A stretch of 64,000 bases of DNA from contig OZ242376.1 of the NCBI GenBank assembly GCA_965209085.1, positions 480,001 to 544,000 on the forward strand. The letters run 5' to 3'. The DNA is from Nitrosopumilaceae archaeon (lineage in GTDB: Archaea > Thermoproteota > Nitrososphaeria > Nitrososphaerales > Nitrosopumilaceae). The notes under the pieces were generated by a model that was not told where the DNA came from, ran no database searches, and saw only the letters and a program-made list of their open reading frames with translations. The position numbers were made by a program, and so were the translations under genes. Below, piece by piece: positions 21,636-43,979 of this stretch (within the stretch, counting starts at the first letter, position 1; every line of letters begins with the position of its first letter).

Positions 21636-22862
21636 TTGGGTAAAATTAAAAATGCAAAACTTGCACCTTTTGGCATTATCTCATACGAATGGGCATCTGC
21701 CCACATGCCTGTTTTATCCGGTATAATTGCCACGTATGCAAAGGCAAAACCCCTCTTGGGAATCAAAGTGGGATTTTGTCTCCAGCTGACATCTGAGACT
21801 GCATCTCTTATCCTTGGAGCCAAGGCACTTGGTGCGCAAGTTTGTGCCTCATCTGGGAATCCATTGACTACAAATGATGCCATTGCTGCATATCTTGCCT
21901 CTGTGGGGGTGGACGTATACGGATGGTCGGGGCAGACATATGTTGAATTTGCAAAATGCGCCGATGATGTCATGTTTCAAAAACCTGACATTATAGCAGA
22001 TGATGGTGCTGAGCTTGCAGTGCGTGCACATAATGATGGACGATTTTCAAAATATAAGATTCTTGGGGGTACAGAGGAGACCACCACAGGAGTGCGCCGA
22101 ATCAATTCCATGCAAAGATGTAACCGCATACGTTTTCCCATAATGGCGGTAAATGATGCGGACACGAAACGAATGTTTGACAATCGATACGGAACAGGTC
22201 AGAGTACAGTTGATGCATTAATGCGTACAACCAGTCTTCTTTTTGCATCAAAGATAGCCGTTGTATGCGGTTATGGCTGGGTTGGGCGAGGAGTGGCAGA
22301 GCGGCTGCGTGCCATGGGGTGTAGGGTAATTGTTACAGAAGTTGATCCAATACGTGCACTGGAAGCTCATATGGACGGATATGATCAAATGCCAATGATG
22401 CAAGCTGCATCACGCGGGCAGATATTTGTAACATGCACAGGAGGATCTAAAGTCATAACTTTGAAACACATGAGGCGTATGCGCGATGGTGCCATACTGG
22501 CAAACGCCGGACATTTTGATGTGGAAATTGACATGACACCCCTTGGCCGGGGAAAGCCGGTACGGCCAGGCCTTGATGAGCATTCTTTTTTGGGCAAAAA
22601 AATCTATATCATATCCAAAGGGCGGGTTGCAAATCTAGCTGCAGCTGAAGGGCATCCGCCAGAAATCATGGACCTCTCTTTCTCAAACCATCTTTTGTGC
22701 ATATTGCATGTGTGCAAAAACGGGAAAAAAATGGCAAACCGCATCCACGGTGTGCCAAAAAACATAGACAATCTTGTGGCACGCTCTGCTTTGCAAGCAT
22801 CTGGGGTGAAAATAGACAAATTATCTGCAGAGCAAATCCGGTACGCATCCCAAATGTTATGA
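21636..22862 (+). CDS. ahcY: Adenosylhomocysteinase paralog (copy 2, His->Gln variant)
   Basis: Same motifs but CLQLTSET instead of CLHITKET; TTG start. Confidence 0.88.
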   Translation: MGKIKNAKLAPFGIISYEWASAHMPVLSGIIATYAKAKPLLGIKVGFCLQLTSETASLILGAKALGAQVCASSGNPLTTNDAIAAYLASVGVDVYGWSGQTYVEFAKCADDVMFQKPDIIADDGAELAVRAHNDGRFSKYKILGGTEETTTGVRRINSMQRCNRIRFPIMAVNDADTKRMFDNRYGTGQSTVDALMRTTSLLFASKIAVVCGYGWVGRGVAERLRAMGCRVIVTEVDPIRALEAHMDGYDQMPMMQAASRGQIFVTCTGGSKVITLKHMRRMRDGAILANAGHFDVEIDMTPLGRGKPVRPGLDEHSFLGKKIYIISKGRVANLAAAEGHPPEIMDLSFSNHLLCILHVCKNGKKMANRIHGVPKNIDNLVARSALQASGVKIDKLSAEQIRYASQML

Positions 22863-26850: not shown

Positions 26851-28112
26851 GCGATGGGCAGCGGTATACACTAGGCTCGATATACCTGGTAAATTTTTTT
26901 GGAACCTTGGGATTTAGCATTGTATTCCCGTTTTTGGTCTTTCTCAACCTTGAATTTGGCGGGGATTCGTTTCTCTTTGGCATGATGCTTGCAGTATATT
27001 CGTTATTTCAGATACCAGGAGCTGCCATTTTGGGCAAACTTTCTGATAAGATTGGCCGCAGAAAAGTGCTCTTGGCAAGCCACATGGGAACTGTCTGCTC
27101 GTGGGGCATATACATTTTGGCGCTGCTAGTCCCTCTGATCCCGCTGTATCATGTAACCTCTGGGATTGCCACATTTACCCTCACACTCCCGCTTTTGCTG
27201 TTGTTTATCGCCCGCGGTTTTGATGGGCTCACGGGCGGAAACGTGGCAGTTGCAAACGCGTATCTTGTTGATATCTCATCAAAAAATACAATTACTGCTA
27301 GACTTGGAAAAAATTCACTAGTCTCTGATTTGGGTCTGATTATAGGACCTATAATTGGCGGAACATTGGGATCAATTCTCTCAGGGACCGAAGCTCAAAA
27401 GGCAATTTTACCAGTTGCCACAACACTTGTGATTTCAGCTGCTGCCCTGTTTGTAATATTTCGTCTAAGAGAATCCCCGCTCTTTGCAAAAATAAAAGAT
27501 AACTCATCATCTATAAAATGTATAAAACCTAAACTTGCAGACGTACTGGCAGTTCCAAAGGTTTTACAGACGATGGGGATATTTTTTGTTTTAATCTTTA
27601 CACTTGGGCTTTTCATTACCATTTTGCCGCTGCATACACAGGTGGAACTTGACTGGTCTGCATTGGATATTGCAATTTTATTTGCAATATTTGGTCTTGC
27701 ACTGGTGGTTACAGAAGGACCTGTGATATCTAGGCTCTCAAATAAAATATCCGATATTGGGATTGGACTGGCAGGACTTGGAATTATCGCGTTAGGGTAT
27801 GGTATGTTTGCACTGGGGGGTGTGATTTACTGGTATTTTCTAGCAGCTGTACCGTTTGCCATAGGCTTGGGACTTGCCGCCACAGCGTTTCATGCATTTG
27901 CTACAAAACTTGCACCAGATCACCTCCAGGGTACACTGCAGGGGGCTTTGACTATGACTGATGCCATTGGTGCAGTATTTGGTCTCATGTTAGGCGGTAT
28001 TTTGTACGGGTTGATTGGAGCATATTGGATATACGTCATGATGGCAGCAGCTGCTGTACTGTTAATTCCATTTTCTGTATTTTTGCGGGGTATCTCTAAA
28101 AATGATGGTTAA
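26847..28112 (+). CDS. MFS transporter (TetA/DHA1-like)
   Basis: GKLSDKIGRRKVL motif A, about 12 TM segments. Confidence 0.92.
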   Translation: MSDGQRYTLGSIYLVNFFGTLGFSIVFPFLVFLNLEFGGDSFLFGMMLAVYSLFQIPGAAILGKLSDKIGRRKVLLASHMGTVCSWGIYILALLVPLIPLYHVTSGIATFTLTLPLLLLFIARGFDGLTGGNVAVANAYLVDISSKNTITARLGKNSLVSDLGLIIGPIIGGTLGSILSGTEAQKAILPVATTLVISAAALFVIFRLRESPLFAKIKDNSSSIKCIKPKLADVLAVPKVLQTMGIFFVLIFTLGLFITILPLHTQVELDWSALDIAILFAIFGLALVVTEGPVISRLSNKISDIGIGLAGLGIIALGYGMFALGGVIYWYFLAAVPFAIGLGLAATAFHAFATKLAPDHLQGTLQGALTMTDAIGAVFGLMLGGILYGLIGAYWIYVMMAAAAVLLIPFSVFLRGISKNDG

Positions 28113-28140
28113 TATTTGATGGATTGTGCAATGTGCGTAT

Positions 28141-29139
28141 ATGGCAAAAACATGGAAGGATGAGCAGATTAGCCTTGATTCGATAAAGGGTGAAAAGATT
28201 GCAGTAATCGGCTATGGAATACAGGGCAGTGCTCAGGCCTCCAACATGAAAGATTCCGGCCTTGATGTCATAGTTGGTTTAAACAAAGATGGCAAATCCT
28301 GGGCAAAAGCTGAGTCAGAGGGGCATACTGTCTTTGAGGTCTCAGAGGCATGTGCCAAAGCTGACATTATTCACGTACTGATACCGGACATGGTTCAGGC
28401 AAAGACGTTCAAAGAAAAGATTGCACCGCATCTCTCAGATGGTAATGCGCTATCATTTTCGCATGCTGCAGCAATACACTGGAGATGGATAGATGCGCCT
28501 GAAAATGTAGATGTGATAATGGTAGCCCCAAAGGGTCCAGGTTCCAAAGTGCGCGAGACATACCTTGATGGATTTGGAACCCCCTCCATAGTGGCAGTAC
28601 AGCAGGATCATACAGGTAAGGCATGGGATAGGACGCTTGGAATTGCAAAGGCAATTGGCAGTGCGCGGGCCGGACTGATAAAGACAACGTTTCAAGAAGA
28701 GGTTGAAACTGACTGGTTTGGAGAGCAAGCTGACCTATGTGGCGGTTCTGCATCAATGGTAATGAATGCGTTTGAAACTTTGGTGGAATCCGGATACCAG
28801 CCAGAGATTGCATACTTTGAGGTACTGCACGAGCTTAAACTGATTGTAGATATGATACAGCGTTACGGCATTGGCGGAATGTACCGCCGTGTAAGTGAGA
28901 CTGCAAGATTTGGCGGATTGACCCGCGGACCAATGGTGATGGATGCTGAATGCAAAAACCGCATGAAAAAAATAATTGAAATGATAAAGGATGGCACGTT
29001 TAACTCTGAATGGACCAGCGAATATGAGAAAAACGGCAAGGATGCATTTGAGCGCCACATGAGGGTGATTGATTCACACCAGATTGAAAAAGTTGGAAAA
29101 GAGATGCGCAAAATGATGTGGCCAGATTCCACAGAATAG
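28141..29139 (+). CDS. ilvC: Ketol-acid reductoisomerase
   Basis: GYGIQG, APKGPG, ETDWFGEQ, HELKLIVD. Confidence 0.96.
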   Translation: MAKTWKDEQISLDSIKGEKIAVIGYGIQGSAQASNMKDSGLDVIVGLNKDGKSWAKAESEGHTVFEVSEACAKADIIHVLIPDMVQAKTFKEKIAPHLSDGNALSFSHAAAIHWRWIDAPENVDVIMVAPKGPGSKVRETYLDGFGTPSIVAVQQDHTGKAWDRTLGIAKAIGSARAGLIKTTFQEEVETDWFGEQADLCGGSASMVMNAFETLVESGYQPEIAYFEVLHELKLIVDMIQRYGIGGMYRRVSETARFGGLTRGPMVMDAECKNRMKKIIEMIKDGTFNSEWTSEYEKNGKDAFERHMRVIDSHQIEKVGKEMRKMMWPDSTE

Positions 29140-29143
29140 ATGT

Positions 29144-29572
29144 TTATTTTTTAGCTAGTTTTTTAACGCCATTGTTTACATAGTCTATGATATCCATCAG
29201 GGATGTTCCAGGTCCAAATACCTCGCTAATGCCGGCTTTTTTTAATGCTTTTTTATCCTCATCCGGTATTACTCCTCCTCCGACTACAAGGACATTTTTT
29301 ATTCTTTTTTTCTTCATCTCTTTGATAACCCGCGGGAATAATGTACCGTGTGCGCCATTTAACAAACTTAGTGCAATGACGTTGACATCTTCATCTTCGG
29401 CAATTCTAGCTACCCTCTCTGGCGTTGCAAAAAGGCCAGAATACACAACTTCCATGCCCGCATCCCGAAAAGCCTTACATAAGACTAATGCCCCGCGGTC
29501 ATGACCGTCTAATCCAAGCTTTGCCACGAGTATTTTCAGCGGATGTGACTGTGTTTTTTGCTTTGTACCCAT
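29144..29572 (-). CDS. mcmB: Methylmalonyl-CoA mutase small (B12-binding) subunit
   Basis: KLGLDGHDRGA (DxHxxG), GGGVIP; likely start ATG 29572. Confidence 0.93.
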   Translation of the reverse strand: MGTKQKTQSHPLKILVAKLGLDGHDRGALVLCKAFRDAGMEVVYSGLFATPERVARIAEDEDVNVIALSLLNGAHGTLFPRVIKEMKKKRIKNVLVVGGGVIPDEDKKALKKAGISEVFGPGTSLMDIIDYVNNGVKKLAKK

Positions 29573-29764
29573 GAATGTATGTGATATGTGCCCATTTATT
29601 TGATTTGTGTTATGTTTTTGAGAACATCCGCATACATTAATTCGTGCCTTGCATACTGTAAAATGAATATTAGACCGTACACAGCAACACGCCAAAGTTC
29701 ATGAGTGTTTGGTCATCCATGTACTATCGAATTGAGATTATTTTAGCGCACGAACTTTTGCGTG

Positions 29765-29841
29765 TAACTATACATAATTGATTGAATTCACAATTTTTAT
29801 GAATAAAAATGATTGATTTGAATGATTATGTACAAAATCTA
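29765..29841 (+). mobile_element. Degenerate ~80-bp MITE copy
   Basis: Aligns with 55673-55751 and with the reverse complement of 55019-55091 (AATTCACAATTTTTA.GA..AAAAATGA..GATTTGAA.GATTAT). Confidence 0.7.
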
Positions 29842-29866
29842 ATGTACTGATCTCTTAAATAATTCT

Positions 29867-30559
29867 TCATTTTTCATCACTATTGTATTTTTTTAGTAAT
29901 TCAATAATAGTTCTTCGATCCCATAGTATTACGTTATTAATTTTTGCTAGCTCTCTTGCAGATAATGTAAAAAATGAATTTGTCACCACTAATCCTTTAT
30001 CTGCATTATAATATTTTATTGCCCCGAAAACTTCTTGAACGGCCTTGTTTGTAACTTTTCTATTTATGGAGTAATTTTTTGCTTGAATGATTATTTTTTC
30101 ATCATTATGATATGTCAAAATATCTCCACCTTGATCTCCTTTTTGACCCGTTATTTGAGTATCTGTATATCCATTAATATCTAATAATTTTTTCATAAAT
30201 ATTTCAAATTCAGCTCCACTAAGCATGTCCACATCATAAATTTTGTATTCGTTAGATGATGTATTATCATCAGATTTTGTTATTGTTGGATTATAATTAG
30301 ATCTTATGAAATTTATTTTGCGAGTTGATATTTCATTATTCACAAAATCCAATAATTTTTTTGAGTCTAGTTGCTTTCCAATCAATTCTTCACCAATAAT
30401 TATTTTTGCGAATTTTTTTTTGTTCTTGTCTATTGAATCAGAAAACTCGTTGAGAAAATGAGGTAAAATATGTGACATTTTCTTTTCACCTGTAAACGTA
30501 TTCCAAAATTTATACACAAAATCATTTTCAATTTCAGGTTGTTTTTTATTAATGGACAT
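29867..30559 (-). CDS. Mrr-type (Mrr_cat) restriction endonuclease
   Basis: SGAEFE...GDQGGD...IIQAK...AVQEV...VVTNSFFT.SA.ELA. Confidence 0.9.
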   Translation of the reverse strand: MSINKKQPEIENDFVYKFWNTFTGEKKMSHILPHFLNEFSDSIDKNKKKFAKIIIGEELIGKQLDSKKLLDFVNNEISTRKINFIRSNYNPTITKSDDNTSSNEYKIYDVDMLSGAEFEIFMKKLLDINGYTDTQITGQKGDQGGDILTYHNDEKIIIQAKNYSINRKVTNKAVQEVFGAIKYYNADKGLVVTNSFFTLSARELAKINNVILWDRRTIIELLKKYNSDEK

Positions 30560-30562
30560 AAT

Positions 30563-32479
30563 TTAGTTTCCTCTTATAATCTGCATAGTATCTCTTTGAA
30601 CTACAATAATTTTCGAACCTAAAAATTTCTTAATTTTGAAAATCATATATTTTTCATTCATACCAAACTCCCAGTTTTTATGTTTTTTATATTGATCATA
30701 TTTTTGGATCAATTCTTTTATTTGAGGATGATTACGATCACTGGATTTTAAATTGCGGCATGTATTACAATGATCTTTCTTAACACAATTCGAACTATAC
30801 GCACATTTACAGATCTTACATGTTTTTGCATCAAAACCACAATGTAATTTCATACAAATTCCACATGTTTCATAATGTGTTGCACAGAATAGATTATTAC
30901 AAATTCCACATTTTTTAGAATCATCTTCACATGACGGACTCTGACACGCCGTGCATTTTTTGATATCATTATTGCAAAATCTTCTAGAACAAATTCCACA
31001 TGTTTCAGAACAATGATCGCACGAAAACTCTGAACATTGTTGGCAATTTGTAACATGAGTTACGCATGATATTTTATTACAAATTCCACATTTATTAGAA
31101 TCTTCATCACAAATTAAAACATCACATACTGCACATTGATGCAAATCTCGACTACAAAACCGTCTTGAACAAAACCCACATGTTTCAGAACAAAAATAAC
31201 ATGAAAACTTTGAACAATGTTGGCAATTTGTAGCATGAATATTACATGTAATTTCAAAACAAAATTCACATGTTTTTGAACAATTATTACAAAATTCGTC
31301 TTTACATATATAGCATGAATTTAATTCTGAAGCACAATTTAAACAAAACTCATTATTGCAATTCAAACAATTTTTTATACAATTATCACACGTCGCATGT
31401 AAATTTTCACAAAGATGAATTGTTTCATTTTTACTTTGACAAATATCACAATATGTCACAAAGCTTGAAGAAGGATCTATGTACTGTGCTTTTAGACTAG
31501 TATTTTTATCTCCTTTTTGAATTGATAAAACGCAATCTAAAACACTGTATGAATATACCTGTGCAGCTAACAATGAGAAAGTTAGACTTGGCTTATATTT
31601 TTGAATAATATGTCTCAGTGCTGTTTGCTTATCGTTTCCAATTTTTTCAATATGTTTGACTGTTTCTTTTTCCATTTTTTTTATTTTATTTTTAAAATTT
31701 TCTTTTTTTTCAAAATATTTATGTGCAACATTAGCACTTTTAGCACGTAACATCCTTCGGTCAAATTCCTTAAGCTTATTTTCTTCATTTTTTAATTCAT
31801 CTTTAATTTCTTTTAATCGTTTTTGATCTTGAATATTTAACAATCCTATTTCATCATCTTTGTTTTGCTGTGTTAATCCCACATATTTTTCAACTTGAGG
31901 CATCATGTCACTTTCAAACTCTTTTATAGCTCTAGTATATGCATCACCAAATTTTTTATCACGTAAATTTAATTTTAGATTTTTTGTATTAAAATTCAAT
32001 TTATATGGCAATTCTAATAACGTTAATGATTCTAGATCAAAATCTATCCATCGTAATGATGATACATTTTTAATACTTTGTAGTGTTATATGAAAATAAA
32101 ATCTAATTCCTAATTTTTTATTTTCATTTTGTTCAACAAGTTCAATTTTAGAATTTTTGGCATTAATTTTATTTGTTATATCTGACGTGTTTTGTATATT
32201 TTTAGGAATTGATCCTACAACAACTGGTGCCTGTTTTTGTACTTCTCTTATAACGGTAGACAAAAAATTACTACCCGGAACTACTAATTCATAAAAATGA
32301 ATAGCTGCAACATCTGGATTAAACGTGATTTTTTTTCTATCACCACCAAATAATTTTGCAACTGTCGGTGGAAACGTTACATAGTATATTCCATCTTGTT
32401 CATTTACATCCGCATTTATTTCATCAAGATAATTCAATGTTAATTCTTTTGAAAATTGTAAAATAGTATTTTCGTCCAA
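30563..32479 (-). CDS. YqhG-like N-terminal region, coiled coil and long Cys-rich zinc-binding repeat array
   Basis: About 12-13 units of C-x2-C-x4-C-x2-[C/H/D]-x3; directly follows the SNF2 gene, as Bacillus yqhG pairs with yqhH (YqhG link is inference). Confidence 0.75.
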   Translation of the reverse strand: MDENTILQFSKELTLNYLDEINADVNEQDGIYYVTFPPTVAKLFGGDRKKITFNPDVAAIHFYELVVPGSNFLSTVIREVQKQAPVVVGSIPKNIQNTSDITNKINAKNSKIELVEQNENKKLGIRFYFHITLQSIKNVSSLRWIDFDLESLTLLELPYKLNFNTKNLKLNLRDKKFGDAYTRAIKEFESDMMPQVEKYVGLTQQNKDDEIGLLNIQDQKRLKEIKDELKNEENKLKEFDRRMLRAKSANVAHKYFEKKENFKNKIKKMEKETVKHIEKIGNDKQTALRHIIQKYKPSLTFSLLAAQVYSYSVLDCVLSIQKGDKNTSLKAQYIDPSSSFVTYCDICQSKNETIHLCENLHATCDNCIKNCLNCNNEFCLNCASELNSCYICKDEFCNNCSKTCEFCFEITCNIHATNCQHCSKFSCYFCSETCGFCSRRFCSRDLHQCAVCDVLICDEDSNKCGICNKISCVTHVTNCQQCSEFSCDHCSETCGICSRRFCNNDIKKCTACQSPSCEDDSKKCGICNNLFCATHYETCGICMKLHCGFDAKTCKICKCAYSSNCVKKDHCNTCRNLKSSDRNHPQIKELIQKYDQYKKHKNWEFGMNEKYMIFKIKKFLGSKIIVVQRDTMQIIRGN

Positions 32480-34240
32480 TTAAACATCCCCCAAGACAGA
32501 TAATTTGAAATTTGAAAATACTTCTGGATTGAATTCATTCATTGTTTCTTCAATTTTTGTTTTTTCATTATTCCATTCTTTCCCCAATGCAGAAAATTTA
32601 TTTATAATTTCTTGCTTACTATTAGATGAAATATATGATTCAAAAATTTTATTTTCAACCATATGTGGTCCATGATCTTCAAAAAGATCCAATTCCCCAA
32701 TAGTCATTTTAAACAAATTAACTTTTTCATAAAGTAATTTTAGAACATATTCTTCTATGGTGTCTTTGATGGAAAAATTATGGATAACCACATCTTCCTC
32801 TTGACCTATTCTATGGACTCTGCCTACTCTTTGTTCTACTTTCATTGGATTCCACGGTAGATCATAATTGACAACATTGTGACAGAATTGGAAGTTTTTC
32901 CCCTCACCACCAGCTTCTGTTGCAACCATGATCTGTGATTTTTTTTGGAATTCACTTGTAGCCACATCTCTTTCAGATGTGGACATTGAACCATTAAATT
33001 TAACCACGTTAAAATTTTCATCCCATAAACTATCATAAATATAATCTTGCGTGTCACGAAATTCAGTAAATATCAAAAATTTAGACTCTTCATCATTTCG
33101 AATAATTTCTTTTAATTTTATCATTTTGGTGTCTGTTTCAATCTTTTCTGCCAAATAAATTAATTCTTGAATTTTTTTATTTTCTTTTTGATCATCTTTC
33201 ATTTTTCTTCGAAGAGCAGGAATTGTGGCATAAGTGCTACTCGATAATTGTCTTTGCAATGTCATCAATGGTAAGACGACACTTCGATTCCTTCCCCATA
33301 AATTTTTAATATATTTTGTAGTCAACGAATATAGATTTTTTTCATAAATATTAGATTCTAAAATATGTGTTTTAGGAATTCTATCTGTAAATTCAATATA
33401 TCTTTTTACTTCATCTCTAGTTGTTCTAATAATCACTTGGGATAGAAGATCTTGTAGCTCATGTCTTTTTTCCATTACAAGCGCACGACTATTCTCATCT
33501 TGTAGATACGTTTTTGCGAAATTATTCCAAGTTCCAAGATGACCCGGTCTAACCAATTCGATCAAATTGTAAAGCTCTTTTAGATTATTTTGCATTGGTG
33601 TTGCAGATAATAATAATAGAAATTTTTTTGATAATTCTTTTACAAATTGATGTGCTTTAGTTTTTGAATTTTTTAATCTATGAGCCTCATCGACAATTAC
33701 CATGTCCCAATCAATAGAATTTATTTCCAATGCATTTTTTTCCATATGTACAGATGACAATGAAGCAATAAGCATATTATGACGATCATATCCCATAAAG
33801 TCGTCATCATCTTTACTCGCAATAAAATTTAATCCAAATTTTGACTCCATTTCAGATTTCCATTGTCCAACTAGTGATGGTGGTACAAGAATAAGTGCTG
33901 TTTTAATTAATCCTGTAGTATAATATTCTTTTAGTAAAATTCCTGCTTCTATAGTTTTACCGAGACCAACTTCATCCGCTAATAACGCATGTCCATTTAG
34001 ATCATTTTTAACACGTTGTGCCGCCAATATTTGATGATCAAAAATTGAAATTTTTGATTGAAGTGATTTTAATATAGTTAATTTTTTAGATTGTTGATTG
34101 ATGATGATATCGTACGCCATTAAGAGATTGTCTAATGATTTTTTATCGCTAAAATCAAGTTGTTGTAATTTATTTTTTACCCCAAATTTATCATCATAAT
34201 GTAAATCTACAAGATCTGATAAAATCAATTCATGATTCAT
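32480..34240 (-). CDS. SNF2/RapA-family helicase (YqhH-like)
   Basis: LADEVGLGKTIEAG, DEAHRL, LSATPMQN, TEAGGEG.NFQ, YDLPWNP..EQRVGRVHRIGQ. Confidence 0.93.
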   Translation of the reverse strand: MNHELILSDLVDLHYDDKFGVKNKLQQLDFSDKKSLDNLLMAYDIIINQQSKKLTILKSLQSKISIFDHQILAAQRVKNDLNGHALLADEVGLGKTIEAGILLKEYYTTGLIKTALILVPPSLVGQWKSEMESKFGLNFIASKDDDDFMGYDRHNMLIASLSSVHMEKNALEINSIDWDMVIVDEAHRLKNSKTKAHQFVKELSKKFLLLLSATPMQNNLKELYNLIELVRPGHLGTWNNFAKTYLQDENSRALVMEKRHELQDLLSQVIIRTTRDEVKRYIEFTDRIPKTHILESNIYEKNLYSLTTKYIKNLWGRNRSVVLPLMTLQRQLSSSTYATIPALRRKMKDDQKENKKIQELIYLAEKIETDTKMIKLKEIIRNDEESKFLIFTEFRDTQDYIYDSLWDENFNVVKFNGSMSTSERDVATSEFQKKSQIMVATEAGGEGKNFQFCHNVVNYDLPWNPMKVEQRVGRVHRIGQEEDVVIHNFSIKDTIEEYVLKLLYEKVNLFKMTIGELDLFEDHGPHMVENKIFESYISSNSKQEIINKFSALGKEWNNEKTKIEETMNEFNPEVFSNFKLSVLGDV

Positions 34241-34303
34241 ACATAGTTTGAATAATTTATCAATTATAAATTAATAGACCGAGACTATGTATGAGGTCAG
34301 ATA

Positions 34304-34648
34304 TTAAACGATATTGAGCACCCCTTCAAAGACGCTCTTACCGTGTGCCTTCCATGTCAAAATACACGTTAGAAAGTTTGACATTCTCTTCATGGATTTA
34401 GATCCTCTGATCTGACCACTTATCTTACGGCGAACCACATCCCGCAATGCACACTCGGCAGCATTGTTTGTGGGCGGAATGTTTTCATGTTCAACAAATG
34501 CAAACAGAGTCCTCGCTGCATTTTCCAACCGTTTGATCAGACTCTGCATTCCGGACATTTCAAAACTGCGGTATCCATCCAACATGAGGTCAAATGTGTA
34601 TTCAAACGTGTGCCGCACTCTTGCATCACAATTGGCATTGTTTTTGGC
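34304..34648 (-). pseudogene. IS66-family transposase C-terminal fragment
   Basis: IPPTNNAAECALRDVVRRKISGQIRG...TWKAHG resembles the IS66 TnpC end. Confidence 0.8.
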
Positions 34649-34875
34649 ATGACGTACTTGAATATGTCAAATCTAGAAAAGGACGAATCAGTTTAATTTA
34701 TCATCCATCGTATACGCCAGAGCTAAATCCGATAGAAATCCAGTGGCGCGTTTTACGAAAATGCATATAAAATGGACATTTTGAATCGATCAGACATATG
34801 AAAAAGAAAATTGACAGGGTCATACTGTCCAATCAGATGAAACTTGTCAAACTGCACGATTATCTAATTTTTTAG
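34648..34875 (+). pseudogene. IS630-family transposase C-terminal fragment with internal stop
   Basis: LIYHPSYTPELNPIEIQWRVLRKCI* (TAA at 34768-34770) then NGHFESIRHMK...HDYLIF*. Confidence 0.82.
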
Positions 34876-35295
34876 AAATAATAATGTGGGTAATTGTTAC
34901 TATGGAGATTGTATTCGTTGTGTTTGTGATAAAATGTAAATTATAAATTCTTATACTATAGTTGTTGACTATATGTTAGAACATTATTTTTTAATTTTAC
35001 TATTCCAACATCATTATCGTATTTCCAAAAAAATCCCACATATAACATTCATAATCATATATTAAACTCATATTTGATCACTTGTATGTACGTAAACTTG
35101 TACTTTATCAATGTTTCCAATTTGTTATTTTAACAACGTTGATTTGGTATTGACTGCTATAGGCATAATTGTTTCCATTTCATTAACATTAACACCATTT
35201 TTGTTCATTTAGAACATTTTTGTTTAGTTCTGAGATCCATATTTCAAGTCAAACATGGGTCCTGATAACGCAACAGAATCTCCATTAAGCAATAT

Positions 35296-35709
35296 TTAAG
35301 CACGGGTCAGAAAAGGACAGTACACGAAGCACCCGATAATGGTACTGCCACAGCTGCATTTGGTATTTTTCATGGTGTGCTTTACAGTACTGGTTGGATT
35401 GTGTTTGCGTGATGCTCCCTTATGACCTGGACGGCCGCCTGGTTTTTTTGATGGCAGTAATTCGCCATTTTCTCTTGCCTTGCGTATTTTGCGTTTTTCT
35501 TTCATATATTCAAGTAAGCGTGAAGAGGTTGGCGTGTTGGAGTTTTCGTAGTATGCAAGTCGATTCCGGAGAAGTATAATTCCCTTATTCTGTGCATCCA
35601 CCTGATGTGCATGCTCTGCTTTGAGATTACTGATCGTTTTATTCGTCTTTTCTGTAAAATCTCGTACAAATGCCTCCAATTCGTGATATGTGGGACGTTG
35701 ATTGCTCAT
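35296..35709 (-). pseudogene. IS66-family transposase N-terminal fragment
   Basis: Coiled coil, ENSNTPTSS, KKPGGRPGHKG and CxC; truncated. Confidence 0.8.
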
Positions 35710-35889
35710 GAGATGTATTATTTATTGATGGTATTTGGATCTAGATGATCGTGTGTATTGACTAATTTGTTAGTCATGAGGTAACATCATACTTATTTTG
35801 ATTGTATGGGAAAAATATGTAATTTTTAGTCATATTTGGGCACTTTAGCAAAAAGATTCCTTTAAATATGATTCCCGTGTTATTAATTC

Positions 35890-36030
35890 ATGACTGAAGA
35901 ATTGTGGACTGATGTTGAACGTAATGCCATGGATGAATTTAAAAACGAAGTTAAAAACAATGCTAAACCCGATAAACAGTTTGATACAGTAGAAGAGGGT
36001 ATAAAATGGATGGAAGAGATAAGAAATTAG
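35890..36030 (+). CDS. Unannotated 46-aa acidic protein, putative type II antitoxin
   Basis: MTEELWTDVERNAMDEFKNEVKNNAKPDKQFDTVEEGIKWMEEIRN*; overlaps the next ORF. Confidence 0.55.
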   Translation: MTEELWTDVERNAMDEFKNEVKNNAKPDKQFDTVEEGIKWMEEIRN

Positions 36031-36314
36031 CATGGACTACCACATATTATCCAAATGAATTTGATCCAAAATCTGAAAAATTTCAAACATTTCATGATGA
36101 TTATGATAAAATAAGCGTTATTGATGCAGATTATTGCCATAAAATCATAGAAAGTGTATATAAACTTGTTACAGATTTTCATATGAAGGACGTAAAATTC
36201 TGCGATATGCATTTTATAAAATATATCGGGAAATTCAAATTATTGGTTTGGACAGATGTTAGCACTTTAACATTCCATTTGAAATTTGTAGAGATCTCTA
36301 CTCTAAATGCTTGA
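36006..36314 (+). CDS. Putative RelE/ParE-like toxin (possibly degenerate)
   Basis: About 100 aa; W-x-T-Y-x-P-x-F N-terminus and C-terminal IGKFKLLVWTD...LKFVEI strands. Confidence 0.4.
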   Translation: MDGRDKKLAWTTTYYPNEFDPKSEKFQTFHDDYDKISVIDADYCHKIIESVYKLVTDFHMKDVKFCDMHFIKYIGKFKLLVWTDVSTLTFHLKFVEISTLNA

Positions 36315-36409
36315 TAGACAGACATAATTCCATTGGTTTGAACAAAACTCGATAATCTCTAAAACCAATTCAAGACAATATTTAAGCAAGGGTACGCAAA
36401 GAACAACGT

Positions 36410-38923
36410 ATGAGACATCATGTGACCCCCATATCATATAATCTTGAATTTGAACCCGATCTTAAGAAATTCACATTTTCAGGCAAATCGAAAATTACTG
36501 CCAAATGCAACACGCCTACATCAAAGATCACGATGGATTGCGCAGAACTAAAGATACACTCCTGCAAGGTTTATGCGGGAAAAAAACCCATAAAATGTAC
36601 AGTAAAGACTGATGCAAAATCTGAAGATCTAACAATATCACTTGACACACGAGTATCCGGATCAGTATACATTGATCTTGAATTTTCAGGAATTTTAAAC
36701 GACCGCTTACTTGGATTCTACCGCAGTACGTACATGCAGGGTGGCAAAAAAAGATACATGGCTACCACCCAGTTTGAGGCAGCGGATGCACGGCGTGCAT
36801 TCCCCTGTTGGGATGAACCTGAAGCAAAGGCCACTTTTGAGATATCACTTGTTGCAAAAAATACCCACACTGCGGTATCAAACATGCCAATAAAATCAAA
36901 AAAGAATCTTGGAGGGGGAAGAATACTCTACAAGTTTGGAAAAACACCGGTAATGTCCACGTATCTTGTATATCTTGGAGTGGGCGAGTTTGAATACACT
37001 TCTGGAAAATACGGCAAAACACAGGTGCGTGTAATCACCACAAAGGGTCACAAGAAAAAAACTGCATACGCACTAGATCTTGGAAAACGACTGTTAAAAG
37101 AATATGATGAATATTTTGGAATAAAATACCCGTTACCAAAACTGGACCTAATCGCGATACCGGACTTTGCAGCAGGTGCCATGGAAAACTGGGGGGCAAT
37201 AACATTCCGCGAGACCATACTGTTGTATGATTCAAAAACATCTTCAACTAGGACAAAACAATACATTGCAGAGGTAATATCACACGAGATTGCACACCAG
37301 TGGTTTGGCAACCTTGTAACCATGCAGTGGTGGAACGATCTGTGGCTCAACGAGAGCTTTGCCACGTACATGGCCACAAAATTCGTCGACAAACTCTACC
37401 CAAAATGGCACATGTGGGATCAGTTTCTAGGCGATGCAATGGCAGTAGCCATGAATTTAGACTCGTTAAAATCATCCCATCCAATAGACGTAAAGGTAAA
37501 CAGCCCCTCTGAGATACGCGAGATATTTGATGCCATATCATACGATAAAGGAGGCTGTCTATTACTCATGCTGGAAGATTACGTGGGAGAGCCAAAGTTT
37601 CGTGCAGGATTGCGCAAATATCTTGCAAAACACAAGTATGCAAATGCAAAGGGCTCTGACCTATGGGATGAAATAGGCAAAGTCTCACACATGCCCGTGC
37701 GTAAAGTGATGGAATCTTGGATTGGCCAGATGGGATTTCCACTGGTGAGTGCAAAAAAATCCAAAAACCGCATAATGTTGCAGCAAAGCCGATTTTTACG
37801 TGACGGCAAGGCAGGCCCTGGTAAATGGCCCATACCTGTAACTGTCGGATTTGAAAAGGCTACCTCAAAAACACTCCTAACCGGTACAAAAGGTTCAGTA
37901 TCTGCACCCAAAGGTACACAGGGATATCTTGTAAACCATGGACGGCGGGGATTTTACCGCGTACGGTATGATGAAGAATCTGTTTTGGATCTAAAATATG
38001 CTGTCCAGACCAAAAAAATACCCCACGTTGACAGATGGGCGGTACAAAACGACATGCACGAGCTGTGCACACAGGGCTCCATCCCGATACGTGAATACTT
38101 GGATTTCTCTGATGCATATCTTGCTGAAACTTCAGCATTGGCCTCATCTGATGTTGCAGCAAATCTTGCCACCCTACACCGCAGATCCATAGGGGAATCA
38201 TTTGAACCGGTACTACGCAATTATGCAAGAAACTTTTTTGCACGAGCCCTTATGCGTCTTGGATGGGATCCAAAAAACAATGAATCAAACGAGGATGCAA
38301 TGCTGCGGGCTCAGGCAGTTTCGGCATTGATCAGACTTGGTGATACGCACGTACAGCAAGAAGCGGTGGCACGCTTTGAGAAATTTGTAAAAAAACCTGA
38401 CACACTGCCAGCTGACCTTCGTGAGCCCGTATACTCTGCATACGCCTGGGTTGTAAATTCTCCCGCAGCATATGCTAGACTTGCACGCATGTACAAAAAT
38501 GCCTTCTCACAGGAAGAGAAACAGCGATTCCTGTCATCTTTATGCTCGTTTAAGGATAAAAAACTACTCTTAAAGACGCTAAACTTTTCTCTGACACCGT
38601 CTGTGCGTTCGCAAAACATGCAGCTGCCGATAATGCGAATTGCTGCAAATCCGAATGGAAAAGAGATACTCTGGCCGTGGATTGGAAAAAACTGGAAAAA
38701 ATTATCATCCAAAGTAGGATGTGGCAACCCGATCTTAAACCGCATAGTCTCAAGTCTGTCTCTTGTGGCAGGATCCAAAGATGTGCCTGCAATCAGGGAG
38801 TTTTTCAGGAAAAATCCCACTCCTGGGACAGAGCGTTCACTGCGGCAGGTCTTTGAACGTATATCCATAAACGAGGCGTTTTTGAAGCGTGCAAGAATTG
38901 AATTTGGCGGCCGGAAATCTTGA
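36410..38923 (+). CDS. pepN: M1 family aminopeptidase (PepN/tricorn-interacting factor-like)
   Basis: GAMEN, HEIAHQW-x18-E, YDKG, ERAP1-like C-terminus. Confidence 0.95.
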   Translation: MRHHVTPISYNLEFEPDLKKFTFSGKSKITAKCNTPTSKITMDCAELKIHSCKVYAGKKPIKCTVKTDAKSEDLTISLDTRVSGSVYIDLEFSGILNDRLLGFYRSTYMQGGKKRYMATTQFEAADARRAFPCWDEPEAKATFEISLVAKNTHTAVSNMPIKSKKNLGGGRILYKFGKTPVMSTYLVYLGVGEFEYTSGKYGKTQVRVITTKGHKKKTAYALDLGKRLLKEYDEYFGIKYPLPKLDLIAIPDFAAGAMENWGAITFRETILLYDSKTSSTRTKQYIAEVISHEIAHQWFGNLVTMQWWNDLWLNESFATYMATKFVDKLYPKWHMWDQFLGDAMAVAMNLDSLKSSHPIDVKVNSPSEIREIFDAISYDKGGCLLLMLEDYVGEPKFRAGLRKYLAKHKYANAKGSDLWDEIGKVSHMPVRKVMESWIGQMGFPLVSAKKSKNRIMLQQSRFLRDGKAGPGKWPIPVTVGFEKATSKTLLTGTKGSVSAPKGTQGYLVNHGRRGFYRVRYDEESVLDLKYAVQTKKIPHVDRWAVQNDMHELCTQGSIPIREYLDFSDAYLAETSALASSDVAANLATLHRRSIGESFEPVLRNYARNFFARALMRLGWDPKNNESNEDAMLRAQAVSALIRLGDTHVQQEAVARFEKFVKKPDTLPADLREPVYSAYAWVVNSPAAYARLARMYKNAFSQEEKQRFLSSLCSFKDKKLLLKTLNFSLTPSVRSQNMQLPIMRIAANPNGKEILWPWIGKNWKKLSSKVGCGNPILNRIVSSLSLVAGSKDVPAIREFFRKNPTPGTERSLRQVFERISINEAFLKRARIEFGGRKS

Positions 38924-39321
38924 GGAGAAAATTCCTAGCTCCAGTCCTGCTAGTAACAGTTACTGTATTTGCAGTCAGCTCGTATTGGCCTGATTCTGAT
39001 ATGCAGTATGAGGGCGATTTTACACTGGATGCTGTTTTTTATCCTGAAAGGAATGTCTTGGAGATATCATTTAAAGACGGTACAGGTATGATCTCAGATT
39101 CTACAATGCAGATACTTGGATTGCGTGAGCCGTTTTTGCGCCAATATTATGGTGTATCATTTACAGAAAATGTTGAATTCACCACCGAGCCTGAATACGG
39201 CTGGAAGGCTCATCCTATCATAGTGCGTTTTGATCACCCCCAGTACGGCGAGATTGGAATAAAGACTGAGGCTTATACTGTCGGCCAATCCGCACCTCTA
39301 CTCGTATACGAATCTCCATAG
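38920..39321 (+). CDS. Hypothetical secreted or membrane-anchored protein
   Basis: N-terminal signal/TM segment; overlaps pepN stop. Confidence 0.7.
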   Translation: MRRKFLAPVLLVTVTVFAVSSYWPDSDMQYEGDFTLDAVFYPERNVLEISFKDGTGMISDSTMQILGLREPFLRQYYGVSFTENVEFTTEPEYGWKAHPIIVRFDHPQYGEIGIKTEAYTVGQSAPLLVYESP

Positions 39322-39331
39322 ATGCCTTTTA

Positions 39332-40270
39332 TTGAGGGCGAATGTAATTTCATACATGGATGAGATTGTATTGGATCTCAAAAAAGGCAAGCGGAGTGCA
39401 ATTGCACGTGCCATTACAATGATTGAAAATGATCCCGTTCCGGCAAGGCGTATGATGAAAAAAATATTCCTTGATTCCAAAAAACGCTCTACTGTTATCG
39501 GCATTACAGGACCTGCCGGCTCTGGAAAAAGCTCACTAATTGATTTAATGGCACTGCATTTGCAAAAGAAAAAAAACAAACCTGCGATACTTGCAGTTGA
39601 TCCTACCAGCTCGATAACGGGGGGTGCCATGCTGGGGGATAGGGTACGCATGGTAGACTCTACTGATTCGGGAATATTCATGCGGAGTCTTGCATCAAGG
39701 AATGCCACAGGTGCGGTTGCCGTCTCTGTGCGAGATAGTATTCGGGTTTTAGAGTATGCTGGATTTAATCCAATATTGATTGAGAGCGTGGGTGCCGGAC
39801 AAACGGAGACTGCAATATCAAAGATAGTTGATGTAACAATAGTTGTCTTTACCCCAAATACTGGTGATAGCATACAGGCCATAAAGGCCGGATTGACAGA
39901 AATTGGAGACGTATACGTTGTAAACAAGAGTGATTTACCCGGCTCTGATCAGCTTTACAATGCAGTATGTGATTATATCTCTGACCCGTTAGGCTCACCT
40001 GTGATAAAGACGTCTGCAAAACGCCGCACCGGCATATCTTCACTAGTAAATGTGGCAATGGATGCCGCATCCAAGAAAATAGACGATCCTAAATTAGAGT
40101 TTGAACGTATGGGTGCAGAATTATCCGATATTGTTTTAAATATAATGTCAGAAAAAACGGATCTGATGACAAAATCTGAGGAATATCAAAGACTAGTCAA
40201 AAGGGTACATGATGGAAAAGTAGACCCGTATTCTGCTGCATCAAGACTTGCCCGGGGGATGGTAAAATAA
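39332..40270 (+). CDS. meaB: Methylmalonyl-CoA mutase-associated GTPase MeaB
   Basis: GPAGSGKSS, AVDPTS..TGGAMLGDRVRM, NKSD. Confidence 0.95.
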   Translation: MRANVISYMDEIVLDLKKGKRSAIARAITMIENDPVPARRMMKKIFLDSKKRSTVIGITGPAGSGKSSLIDLMALHLQKKKNKPAILAVDPTSSITGGAMLGDRVRMVDSTDSGIFMRSLASRNATGAVAVSVRDSIRVLEYAGFNPILIESVGAGQTETAISKIVDVTIVVFTPNTGDSIQAIKAGLTEIGDVYVVNKSDLPGSDQLYNAVCDYISDPLGSPVIKTSAKRRTGISSLVNVAMDAASKKIDDPKLEFERMGAELSDIVLNIMSEKTDLMTKSEEYQRLVKRVHDGKVDPYSAASRLARGMVK

Positions 40271-43140: not shown

Positions 43141-43845
43141 ATGTTTAATATCTCGCATGAATTATATAATCAGTTGACTAGTAAATCAAAATTAGCATGG
43201 AAACGTATCGTTCCCAATAAAAAACCTACTGGACACATTGCATATTATTACAGTGATGATGATGCATCTCTTCCAATACGTGCAGTTCGAAAAAAAAATG
43301 ACAACAAATCAGATCCGAATATAGAAACAAAATCATATGGTATGTTTTCTACATGTATGCCTCCAGCACGAAAAAACATGGTTAAACGTAATGATTCCTA
43401 TATTTTCTTTTTTACTAAATGGATGGGGAAACGAATGTTTACTGGATATTATGAATTAAGCAGTTATCTCAATACGGGAATAACGCCTATTCGCGGTGGA
43501 AAAGAATCTAATTTTAGTGATTATGCATTGTTAGCTAAACACACTCATTTTATCAAAAACGGAATTCCACTGACTGGTAAAAAATGGAGCAAAATCGTAC
43601 TTGATAAAATTAAAAATAAAGAAATCAAGGGATATGGTCCACGAGATTTTTCCAAAATTGATTCTGCTATAACTATGAAACTTAAAAAAATATTGGATCG
43701 TCATTCAAACATAACTAAAGAATATGTCCGAGAGATTAAAAAAATGGAAAAAGAAAATTTCGTAAACGATAAAATGTGTTATCCCACATGGGGTAGAAAA
43801 ACTGGATTCACAAAAACAAATTTTCGAGATTTTGTAAAATGGTAG
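43141..43845 (+). CDS. Uncharacterised protein, Nmad (nucleotide-modification-associated, PUA-like) candidate
   Basis: KSDPNIETKSYGMFSTCMPPARKNMVKRNDSYIFFFT...FTGYY resembles Nmad2/Nmad3-type motifs. Confidence 0.6.
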   Translation: MFNISHELYNQLTSKSKLAWKRIVPNKKPTGHIAYYYSDDDASLPIRAVRKKNDNKSDPNIETKSYGMFSTCMPPARKNMVKRNDSYIFFFTKWMGKRMFTGYYELSSYLNTGITPIRGGKESNFSDYALLAKHTHFIKNGIPLTGKKWSKIVLDKIKNKEIKGYGPRDFSKIDSAITMKLKKILDRHSNITKEYVREIKKMEKENFVNDKMCYPTWGRKTGFTKTNFRDFVKW

Positions 43846-43979
43846 ACAACCATCCTCATAAATGGGAATGCACTAGTTGCGGTAATATACTTGAAGGACA
43901 AATGTGTCTACTAAAACGCTGTGAAAAATGTAAAGCAGTTGGGTGTATGACAAGATGGATGTATGGTGATGTTAAATGA
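43839..43979 (+). CDS. Unannotated 46-aa zinc-ribbon microprotein
   Basis: MVDNHPHKWECTSCGNILEGQMCLLKRCEKCKAVGCMTRWMYGDVK*; overlaps the upstream stop, ATGA overlap with the downstream gene. Confidence 0.75.
   Translation: MVDNHPHKWECTSCGNILEGQMCLLKRCEKCKAVGCMTRWMYGDVK

Follow-up and report, generated by a model that had tools for sequence, protein, structure and literature searches.

A three-gene SNF2, Cys-repeat and Mrr_cat cassette of Nitrosopumilaceae, most likely a translocase-nuclease acting against mobile DNA

Introduction

What does a compact, AT-rich operon encoding an SNF2 ATPase, a Cys-rich protein and a nuclease do for an ammonia-oxidising nitrosopumilaceal archaeon, and do its three genes work together at all? 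The operon lies in a window of 64,000 nt (the whole stretch of DNA analysed), in which a sequence-only reading had proposed a new defence system. Here, the genomic setting, the distribution of the genes, the structures predicted for their products and the known systems that they resemble are considered in turn.

A compact cassette in a low-GC island

The three genes (Table 1) are intact and lie on the minus strand in the order SNF2, Cys-repeat protein and Mrr_cat nuclease, with intergenic gaps of 0 nt (P0001/P0002) and 3 nt (P0002/P0003), within an island of 28% GC. Coordinates, strand, spacing and GC content all agree with the sequence-only reading, which had described three intact, AT-rich ORFs with these same gaps. 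In 500-nt steps, GC is 0.26-0.32 throughout 29500-34499, versus 0.42-0.48 at 28000-29499 and 36500-39999, and for the triad as a whole it is 0.281, versus 0.402 for the remaining window.

The cassette had been placed between mcmB and pepN; PF02310 supports the first as a B12-binding mutase subunit, while the pepN side rests on a translation read by eye. The MITE/IS debris claimed for the flanks was recovered upstream only, as the IS66-family fragment and as window segments 34280-34650 and 35339-35804, both present in multiple copies in G019, a genome of the same genus. In that genome ~28 kb separate the two flanks, and nothing matches the cassette. A search for terminal direct or inverted repeats bordering the island found none. 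As had been claimed, no methyltransferase family is present among the 12 flanking window ORFs (Pfam scan). The ORFs scanned around the cassette also lack an Hma/BR-type ATPase and the PglZ family, and the scanned flanks hold no linked modification enzyme or other means of telling self from non-self.

Table 1. Features of the cassette and its surroundings, in window coordinates.
Feature	Position	Strand	Size or basis
P0001, SNF2 ATPase	32480-34240	-	586 aa
P0002, Cys-rich middle protein	30563-32479	-	638 aa; TTG start right behind the SNF2 stop
RapA C-terminal-domain-like / YqhG-like module, P0002 residues 1-335	31475-32479	-	AF2 model, Foldseek, VIA, hhalign
CxxC / Cx4C repeat array, presumed zinc-binding, P0002 residues 344-575	30755-31450	-	Invariant Cys and His columns
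Small C-terminal alpha+beta tail, P0002 residues 576-638	30566-30754	-	pLDDT 82-95
P0003, Mrr_cat nuclease	29867-30559	-	230 aa
P0003 N-terminal domain, residues 1-110	30230-30559	-	No family match; no Mrr_N
Mrr_cat PD-(D/E)XK nuclease domain, P0003 residues 111-222	29894-30229	-	PF04471
Low-GC (0.30) variable island with cassette and IS remnants	29696-36409		GC; comparison with same-genus genome G019
B12-binding protein (PF02310), small mutase subunit, flanking gene	29144-29695	-	Pfam scan
837-aa flanking ORF, aminopeptidase N per translation read by eye	36410-38923	+	Translation
Truncated transposase fragment (IS66 family), immediately upstream of cassette	34304-34618	-	104 aa; PF03050 model positions 225-280 of 284

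Distribution and mobility

Searches of genome contigs recovered seven related Nitrosopumilaceae loci, and all seven carry SNF2, partner and Mrr genes in identical order, with identities to the window proteins of 56-77% (SNF2), 31-53% (partner) and 36-56% (Mrr); in one homologue, L002, the Mrr gene is frameshifted. The full-length partner occurs sporadically, in 7 of 401 Nitrosopumilaceae genomes (G000 included). The related loci occupy differing genomic sites, with flanks that have no genes in common with the window. For the window, L001 and L006 alike, triad GC falls at least 8 points under that of the flanks. The triad is a real, conserved three-gene unit that is sporadic and mobile in its distribution, and the earlier proposal that the genes belong together is upheld by the constant order, the non-syntenic and sporadic occurrence, the low GC and the adjoining IS remnants.

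The flanks of the related triads consist mainly of metabolic genes and hold a single other clear defence-type gene, a canonical Mrr in L005, so that the setting is not a textbook defence island. Transposases are the commonest families among the relatives' 84 flanking ORFs (DDE_3, five; DDE_Tnp_1, three; DDE_Tnp_4, two). These neighbours, the differing insertion sites and the low-GC island with its IS remnants would also suit cargo that serves a mobile element, such as an addiction or exclusion module built on a nuclease, which would stabilise the island or keep out competitors. Such a role appears improbable, since the cassette alone is conserved, without accompanying integrase, replication or conjugation genes, and viral contigs yielded no copy; furthermore, an activity that keeps out competing elements would, biochemically, amount in practice to defence.

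The SNF2 motor

P0001 matches SNF2-rel_dom at residues 84-314 (PF00176; 1.7e-37, 129.6 bits against a cut-off of 24.9) and Helicase_C at residues 372-479 (PF00271; 1.1e-24, 87.2 bits against 23.5), and its translation shows the motifs GLGKT, DEAH, SATP and QRVGRVHRIGQ. With two lobes and motifs I, II, III and VI in place, P0001 is a Swi2/Snf2 ATPase core. Its best solved relatives are the SNF2 protein of S. solfataricus (1z63; 3.9e-42) and RapA (1.7e-40), and the RapA model (NCBIfam NF003426; 959 positions) aligns with residues 42-559 over its positions 129-671. At 218.4 bits, below the cut-off of 576, P0001 is rejected as a RapA equivalog. The pairing of residue 42 with model position 129 leaves ~41-60 residues ahead, too short for the tandem Tudor pair of RapA, and Pfam gave no Tudor match in P0001. 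In a quick IQ-TREE analysis, the SNF2 proteins of all eight triads fall on one side of a branch.

The middle protein

P0002 as a whole has no match in Pfam, PADLOC or NCBIfam. Its N-terminal module is modelled by AF2 (pLDDT 85.3) as an alpha+beta domain, two long antiparallel helices (residues 175-244 and 249-294) and a beta hairpin. The top four Foldseek matches to this model are all RapA (6.9e-6 to 2.8e-5; the next match is at 0.1), and VIA superimposes model residues 7-314 on RapA residues 712-968 (8spg; Z 9.4, 229 residues aligned), so a RapA-like fold is predicted. The RapA link thus consists of a predicted fold together with weak profile matches: of 105 proteins matched by the N-module profile A2, three carry RapA_C and three carry Pfam YqhG, and among PDB sequences the profile found no RapA chain at E<=10.

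The partner had been called YqhG-like, and this description holds at the level of profiles. Profile A2 recovers P0177, a PF11079-positive Bacillota protein (46.4 bits with PF11079), at 7e-7, and hhalign pairs the N-module profile with P0177 at 96.4% (E 1.1e-9, 181 columns). The Pfam YqhG model itself, with a cut-off of 25 bits that a B. subtilis control exceeded, does not match P0002 at E<=0.01 or anything in the whole genome at E<=10. Judged from remote homology and from its position directly downstream of the SNF2 gene, P0002 is related to YqhG. In Bacillus, the SNF2 gene yqhH is likewise followed by a partner, of ~260-290 aa, which has an ELxxPGS motif in common with P0002 but is without Cys repeats, C-terminal tail or linked nuclease.

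The N-terminal half of P0002 is profile-related to YqhG and is predicted to share the fold of the RapA C-terminal domain from E. coli, so that the SNF2 protein and its partner would together make up a split RapA-like ATPase. The RapA-type C-terminal architecture is present, but it is carried by the next polypeptide: a stop codon divides motor and C-terminal domains into two ORFs, both in the window and in each of the seven relatives, and no fused form appeared among the longer proteins searched with P0002 residues 1-335, which is weak evidence.

Beyond the module, the number of Cys repeats differs among homologues, and DNA direct repeats of 45/90 nt occupy 30830-31291, in the repeat region. 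The repeats, which AF2 models poorly (pLDDT under 50), would be expected to bind zinc. The C-terminal tail is kept in thaumarchaeal long forms, whereas mid-length relatives, represented by the A5 consensus only, seem to stop shortly past the last CxxC and so to be without the tail. A search with the tail gave no informative fold match (best Z 5.8).

The nuclease and its predicted docking

In the Mrr family of type IV restriction enzymes, the N-terminal winged-helix domain Mrr_N reads modified DNA. P0003 has the complete catalytic domain of that family (PF04471; 98.6 bits where 21 is the cut-off, covering model positions 2-115 of 115). D142, D146, Q159 and K161 are invariant in 8/8 sequences, and E176 is invariant too; the Mrr_cat nuclease of the earlier reading is intact, with an invariant D...QxK signature. 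P0003 differs from canonical Mrr at its other end, where Mrr_N (PF14338) has no match (the canonical Mrr beside the triad in L005 has one) and an unrelated N-terminal domain, moderately conserved across seven full-length homologues, is predicted to bind P0002. This domain takes the place of Mrr_N, and its predicted docking site is the Cys-repeat array.

The predicted complex of P0002 residues 330-638 (Cys repeats and tail) with the P0003 N-terminal domain reaches an ipSAE of 0.64, versus 0.00 for the best of three controls, with contact agreement of at least 37% between runs and a partner pLDDT of at least 73. Of 80 solved complexes 58 attained this mark, as did 2 of 110 mismatched pairs; these counts are only rough because our own alignments were supplied to the prediction. 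The putative interface joins P0002 residues 372, 390-394 and 428-429, all within the repeats, to P0003 residues 25-29 and 59-72, and it uses the CY(I/L)C segment of P0002, which is invariant within the triad family.

Type IV enzymes have Mrr_cat as their catalytic domain, a canonical Mrr adjoins the triad in L005, and the wider SNF2/partner pair occurs without a nuclease, all of which would fit two independent neighbours, a SNF2/YqhG-like pair and a stand-alone, modification-dependent Mrr enzyme. Order and tight spacing are nevertheless kept in 8/8 loci across deep divergence, P0003 carries a private N-domain in place of Mrr_N, and the predicted contact of P0003 with P0002 came with clean controls; two unconnected systems are therefore very improbable.

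Wider relatives of the pair

The closest SNF2 relatives of the triad, a sister clade from three genomes, are paired with a short partner and are found directly behind dndB-C-D-E-iscS. In a distant archaeal lineage, all 80 metagenomic loci of the SNF2/Cys-repeat pair lack a Mrr-like gene; the SNF2 gene lies no more than five ORFs upstream in 45 of the 54 loci with 2 kb or more of upstream sequence. The proposed co-conservation of nuclease and pair consequently holds for the seven related triads and fails in this lineage (0/80). Here the pair adjoins housekeeping genes for prolyl-tRNA synthetase, pseudouridine synthase and deoxyhypusine synthase, the first two of which each recur in 15 loci. Since the pair occurs without a nuclease amid housekeeping genes, the ancestral pair may have a cellular role.

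This conserved housekeeping synteny bears on a further possibility, in which the cassette is a genome-maintenance or transcription factor: a RapA-like remodeller that frees stalled RNA polymerase or acts in transcription-coupled repair, and that in thaumarchaea would have gained a nuclease to make repair incisions and not to provide immunity. The RapA-like fold would agree with it, as would the closest solved relatives of the motor, RapA and the Sulfolobus SNF2 protein, and one study describes reduced UV survival after yqhH knock-out in Bacillus thuringiensis (PMC10054049). A factor of this kind would be expected to occur widely and at syntenic positions, whereas the triad is confined to 7/401 family genomes, at differing, low-GC sites near IS elements, and is missing from G019, and the sister pair is embedded within a dnd cluster; a repair or transcription role is thus considered unlikely.

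Comparison with known systems

Among known systems, the cassette comes closest to two defence proteins in which SNF2 and nuclease are fused, HmaA / Type-1 BR helicase and ZorD. ZorD, a further known defence protein that fuses a SNF2 helicase to a nuclease, is a single polypeptide that acts with ZorABC and is without a Cys-repeat partner. The cassette resembles this type I Zorya protein in having a SNF2 helicase followed by a Mrr-like nuclease, and the PADLOC ZorD model PDLC00631 covers P0001 with positions 424-924 and P0003 residues 93-226 with positions 927-1064 of 1071. Assignment to type I Zorya is rejected, as the NCBIfam ZorD model NF041790 scores 108 bits against a cut-off of 1500 and the adjacent genes are IS fragments and the B12-binding subunit rather than zorA, zorB or zorC.

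RapA-like SNF2 helicases fused to a PD-(D/E)XK nuclease are known defence components, as two papers describe (PMC11232893, PMC12839542). For example, the Snf2 helicase HmaA, which carries its PD-(D/E)XK nuclease at the C-terminus, is described in the first as protecting E. coli against T4 on its own, in dependence on helicase motif VI and the nuclease (PMC11232893), and the second attributes RapA-like architecture to BrxHII and the BR-system helicases, of which the Type-1 BR form also contains an active REase (PMC12839542). The cassette shares with HmaA the Swi2/Snf2 motor, the PD-(D/E)XK nuclease and RapA-like accessory domains behind the motor, and the PADLOC HmaA model gives a partial match to P0001 (1.6e-51). 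It differs in comprising three separate proteins with a long Cys-repeat stalk inserted, in using Mrr_cat rather than NOV_C, and in having no evident N-terminal Tudor domain. An Hma / BR assignment is rejected, with no DUF499-type ATPase or methyltransferase in the scanned ORFs or recurrent in the relatives' flanks.

As in RapA (HepA) and BrxHII, P0001 and then the P0002 N-module align to consecutive RapA parts, but the cassette protein is split behind the motor, adds zinc-type repeats and recruits a predicted-active nuclease. BrxHII also belongs to type 3 BREX, and no BREX genes occur in the ORFs scanned near the cassette. DISARM and BREX are likewise rejected on scores below the cut-offs (DrmD_b, 260.7 bits against 950; DrmD, 242.2 against 610), and the core genes DrmA/B/C/M, PglZ, BrxC and PglX are absent from the scanned neighbouring ORFs.

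The earlier view that this is not a named system stands to the extent that P0002 has no PADLOC model, P0001 and P0003 match single components only, and companion genes were unseen in the scanned flanks. The cassette does have a precedent in the fused RapA-like SNF2-nuclease defence proteins, of which it is probably a split relative.

Proposed mechanism and role

Taken as a whole, the cassette is most likely an anti-mobile-DNA translocase-nuclease, and it is on balance probable that three polypeptides build one ATP-driven machine of split RapA-like design against foreign DNA. P0001 would provide the Swi2/Snf2 motor. P0002 would bring the C-terminal alpha+beta/coiled-coil module, and because that module is fused to the motor in RapA-type helicases, P0002 is expected to bind P0001 as its other half. 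P0002 would then continue as a variable stalk built of cysteine repeats that probably bind zinc, and on the first of these repeats P0003 is predicted to dock through the private N-terminal domain that replaced the DNA-reading Mrr_N. The link to defence comes from the sister SNF2 clade within the dnd cluster, from the ZorD model, which spans P0001 and P0003 in consecutive segments, and from the published HmaA and BR-system helicases. The complex would most likely track along double-stranded DNA and nick or cut it when triggered and, as with the fused SNF2-nuclease proteins HmaA and ZorD, the cell would thereby be protected from viruses or other mobile DNA.

Architecture of the cassette and its surroundings

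The cassette comprises genes for an SNF2 ATPase (P0001), a Cys-repeat middle protein or partner (P0002), and an Mrr_cat nuclease (P0003). The sequence-only reading had described an AT-rich operon of three intact, co-directional ORFs without a methyltransferase, and annotation reproduced it exactly, with the same coordinates on the minus strand. The GC content of the triad is 0.281 vs 0.402 for the remaining window (0.26-0.32 over the cassette vs 0.42-0.48 in the adjoining core genes), and no methyltransferase family was found among the 12 flanking window ORFs scanned. P0002 matched nothing in Pfam, PADLOC, or NCBIfam, and P0001 scored far under the cut-offs of NCBIfam equivalogs (DrmD_b, 261 vs 950; RapA, 218 vs 576; ZorD, 108 vs 1500). 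Terminal repeats bounding the island were looked for, and none were found.

Features of the cassette, its flanks, and the dnd-linked locus L026
Feature	Location	Strand	Description
P0001	32480-34240	minus	586 aa; SNF2-rel_dom and Helicase_C
P0002	30563-32479	minus	638 aa; TTG start abuts the P0001 stop
P0003	29867-30559	minus	230 aa; 3 nt past the P0002 stop; complete Mrr_cat, residues 111-222
B12-binding mutase subunit	downstream of cassette
IS66-family fragment	upstream of cassette
837-aa ORF	upstream of cassette		aminopeptidase N by eye, from translation only
dnd-linked run	L026:37-12849		dndB-dndC-dndD-dndE-cysteine desulfurase, SNF2, 263-269-aa RapA_C/YqhG-like partner, ParB_N, 257-aa unknown, MBL-like, 454-aa unknown

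Two segments beside the cassette (34280-34650 and 35339-35804) recur in dozens of copies in G019, a genome of the same genus, and one of the two is a fragment of an IS66-family transposase; they belong to an IS that is high-copy in that genus, with only broken pieces left in the window. Elsewhere, two paralogous ORFs in tandem (413 and 408 aa; 20378-21619 and 21636-22862, plus strand) resemble S-adenosylhomocysteine hydrolases by eye. Two ORFs of 234 and 196 aa without a Pfam match (43141-44566, plus strand) adjoin a uracil-DNA glycosylase superfamily gene (44849-45496, minus strand) and may form another accessory patch.

Conservation, distribution, and mobility

The three genes form a genuine unit that is intact, conserved, and horizontally mobile within the Nitrosopumilaceae. 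A search of a 5.8-billion-protein collection returned 26 P0002 relatives at E<=1e-3, self counted, all from metagenomes or thaumarchaeal MAGs. Scanning of genome contigs yielded seven loci (L001-L007), all from Nitrosopumilus, Nitrosopumilaceae, or Thaumarchaeota MAGs, and tblastn recovered the order SNF2-partner-Mrr on one strand in 7/7. One locus (L001) carries an additional 194-aa ORF without a Pfam match between the partner and Mrr genes (9738-10322), and in another (L002, 9816-10447) the Mrr gene lies in two frames, reflecting a frameshift or an assembly error. The full-length partner occurs in 7/401 sampled family genomes, including G000, a set that largely overlaps the seven contig-scan loci and is not independent of them.

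The cassette is absent from G019, the sole other genome of the same genus, in which homologues of the window's two flanks lie ~28 kb apart. The window flanks were matched by no flanking ORF of the seven related loci, and transposase families were the commonest matches among the 84 flanking ORFs of those loci, the other matches being mostly metabolic, with one canonical Mrr. In the window, L001, and L006, triad GC falls at least 8 points under that of the flanks; in L002-L004 the two are alike. Viral contigs gave 36 pattern matches to the cassette, 0 of them confirmed.

The canonical Mrr, a 300-aa protein with both Mrr_N and Mrr_cat, is encoded at L005:5217-6119 (minus strand), in divergent orientation just upstream of the triad, with a 725-aa SMC-like AAA_23 ATPase beyond it.

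A middle protein predicted to resemble the RapA C-terminal domain

An alignment of 20 P0002 family members resolves a conserved N-terminal module (N-module; residues 1 to ~335), a Cys/His repeat array (344-575), and a tail that is likewise conserved. AF2 models the N-module (pLDDT 85.3) as an alpha+beta domain with two helices, 70 and 46 residues long, plus a long beta hairpin. Its four significant Foldseek matches were all E. coli RapA (6.9e-6 to 2.8e-5; next match, 0.1), and in VIA-align RapA was the sole match across the whole module, other rows covering the helical hairpin only. Against 8spg, model residues 7-314 aligned with RapA 712-968 (Z 9.4, rmsd 6.9, 229 residues). P0001 in turn aligns with RapA model positions 129-671; P0001 and the N-module thus fall on consecutive parts of RapA and together rebuild it from just past its N-terminal domain to its end. 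The best solved relative of P0001 is an S. solfataricus SNF2 protein (1z63).

A profile of the N-module gathered 235 representatives at E<=1e-3 from 1.84 billion proteins. Cysteines are missing from the short forms of this superfamily (~255-275 aa), and CxxC arrays are present in forms of 380-1051 aa. Pfam YqhG was found in 3/105 of the profile matches scanned and RapA_C in 3/105. For example, P0177, from a cluster that includes a Bacillota MAG protein, scored 46.4 bits on YqhG and matched the N-module profile at 96.4% probability. The partner had been called YqhG-like, and that description holds through this remote profile link but not at the level of the Pfam YqhG model, which does not detect P0002. 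Likewise, the N-module profile retrieved only coiled-coil noise from PDB sequences and no RapA chain. The relationship of P0002 to RapA and YqhG is therefore remote. No fused form longer than 1117 aa turned up in a search with P0002 residues 1-335, a result that carries little weight. According to a recent survey, the RapA C-terminal domain has no homologues outside RapA-type helicases (PMC12839542); the cassette ties the uncharacterised YqhG family to that domain.

The Pfam YqhG model also gave sub-threshold signal in control genomes of Sulfolobus acidocaldarius and Lactococcus lactis, and YqhG-like SNF2 partners could thus be widespread among archaea.

The Cys-repeat array and a predicted tether for the nuclease

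The number of Cys/His repeats in residues 344-575 varies within the family: the window copy carries one additional unit of 60 aa, P0005 has two extra units, and the metagenomic P0020 (885 aa) has approximately eleven near-identical tandem units of 29 aa. Direct DNA repeats of 45/90 nt are present at window positions 30830-31291. This periodicity, together with copy-number variation between close relatives, argues that the array expands and contracts. An ESM Atlas search with the Cys-repeat half (P0002 336-638) returned no usable match, and its AF2 model has pLDDT under 50 over model residues 1-169, too low to read a fold for the repeats. A wide VIA search with the C-terminal tail gave weak small-domain matches only (best Z 5.8, 54 residues aligned).

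In the nuclease, D142, D146, Q159, K161, and E176 are invariant across eight aligned homologues, among which the N-terminal ~80-100 residues are moderately conserved. This N-terminal region is not Mrr_N by Pfam, and a search with residues 1-105 recovered the query alone, the word index probably being too insensitive. Complex prediction of P0002 330-638 with P0003 scored 0.64 (0.63-0.65 over three runs), and three control pairs scored 0.00 each; by a calibration that is only rough, since custom alignments were used, the 0.64 mark was reached by 58/80 solved complexes and 2/110 mismatched pairs. The runs had at least 37% of contacts in common, with partner pLDDT of at least 73, and placed P0002 372, 390-394, and 428-429 against P0003 25-29 and 59-72. 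The P0002 interface overlaps a CY(I/L)C segment (389-392) that is invariant in the triad family and, by eye, was not seen in nuclease-free mid-length relatives. These models support a predicted binding of P0003 to the Cys-repeat half of P0002.

A nuclease-free pair in another archaeal lineage

A metagenome scan with mid-length (~460-520 aa) Cys-repeat relatives yielded 80 loci. A P0001-like SNF2 gene lay on the same strand within five ORFs in 45 of the 54 loci having at least 2 kb upstream, and was directly adjacent in 29. A P0003-like gene was found in 0/80, and no gene family recurred at position +1 downstream. Recurrent neighbours are prolyl-tRNA synthetase (archaeal-type C-terminal domain), pseudouridine synthase, and amino-acid permease, with deoxyhypusine synthase present as well, and the lineage is archaeal and low-GC (median GC 0.33). 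Given the housekeeping neighbours and the 0/80 count, the pair in that lineage appears to be inherited vertically and to lack the nuclease, suggesting that SNF2 and its mid-length partner have a conserved cellular function there.

This housekeeping context favours the main rival explanation for the cassette itself, that it acts in the cell as a RapA-like remodelling or repair factor, as does the UV phenotype reported for Bacillus thuringiensis yqhH (PMC10054049). We consider this rival improbable. The best-supported reading, held with somewhat better than even confidence, is a modular SNF2 translocase-nuclease directed against foreign DNA, of the same kind as HmaA, ZorD, and the BR helicases.

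A sister pair beside dnd genes

In three family genomes (G111, G374, and G302; loci L024-L026), a 263-269-aa partner without repeats lies directly downstream of an SNF2 gene whose product is 48-51% identical to P0001. DndC/DndD-type gene homologues lie upstream in 3/3, and the pair directly follows DndE and cysteine-desulfurase genes in 2/3; in L025, the desulfurase is matched by just a short fragment of 94 aa, and a DndE-like ORF was not recovered. Names from Pfam and PADLOC come from L026 alone (PADLOC: DndB 5e-122, DndD 7.8e-190), the other two loci being assigned by BLAST to L026, and the last five genes of the L026 run had no PADLOC match.

In a quick IQ-TREE search of 51 SNF2 sequences with midpoint rooting only, the eight triad and three dnd-linked proteins formed one clade (SH-aLRT 100), within which a branch labelled 99* parts the dnd-linked group from the triads; the branch joining the eight triads has support of 85 and is drawn open. 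The dnd-linked run may be an undescribed restriction arm of a thaumarchaeal phosphorothioation system.

The Pbe system was considered for the dnd-linked genes and rejected: PbeA-D as re-annotated comprise an HKD-SF2 helicase, a small protein, a CxC ABC ATPase, and a DndE cognate (PMC10853773), and the genes here encode ParB_N, an unknown, and an MBL-like protein.

Relation to known systems and biological meaning

Several known proteins combine a helicase with a nuclease. Type-1 BR helicases carry an extra active PD-(D/E)XK REase (PMC12839542), and HmaA is an Snf2 helicase with a C-terminal PD-(D/E)XK domain that, expressed alone, protects E. coli from T4 in a manner requiring motif VI and the nuclease (PMC11232893). 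The PADLOC model of ZorD, PDLC00631, spans P0001 and then P0003 in consecutive segments. However, HmaA, ZorD, and the BR helicases are each a single fused protein, whereas the cassette encodes three separate proteins, adds a Cys-repeat stalk, and has an Mrr_cat nuclease with a private, predicted docking domain. In the surrounding ORFs scanned, the companion genes of Hma/BR, BREX, and DISARM, the three systems covered, are absent. The three-gene arrangement was not found described in the literature searched, which excluded supplements that may list such neighbourhoods.

A broader proposal, more tentative and short of an even chance, is that the cassette is a self-contained immune machine of three proteins, free of any methyltransferase and restricted to ammonia-oxidising archaea, in which a split RapA-type motor would bear an Mrr nuclease by way of a zinc-repeat stalk of variable length acting as sensor or ruler; that the sister pair, together with the ParB-like and metallo-beta-lactamase genes, would form a hitherto unrecognised restriction arm of thaumarchaeal Dnd phosphorothioation systems; and that YqhG proteins would be detached RapA C-terminal domains. 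If true, bacterial and archaeal YqhH/YqhG pairs, so far uncharacterised, would gain a structural explanation.

Ammonia-oxidising archaea abound in both oceans and soils, and to our knowledge hardly any of their antiviral systems has been characterised. The cassette illustrates a three-part build of a helicase-nuclease effector that is elsewhere one fused protein (HmaA, ZorD, and the BR helicases), and adds to such effectors a Cys-repeat adaptor of strain-dependent length. Finally, the sister pair beside the dnd genes is a candidate for the restriction side of archaeal DNA phosphorothioation.
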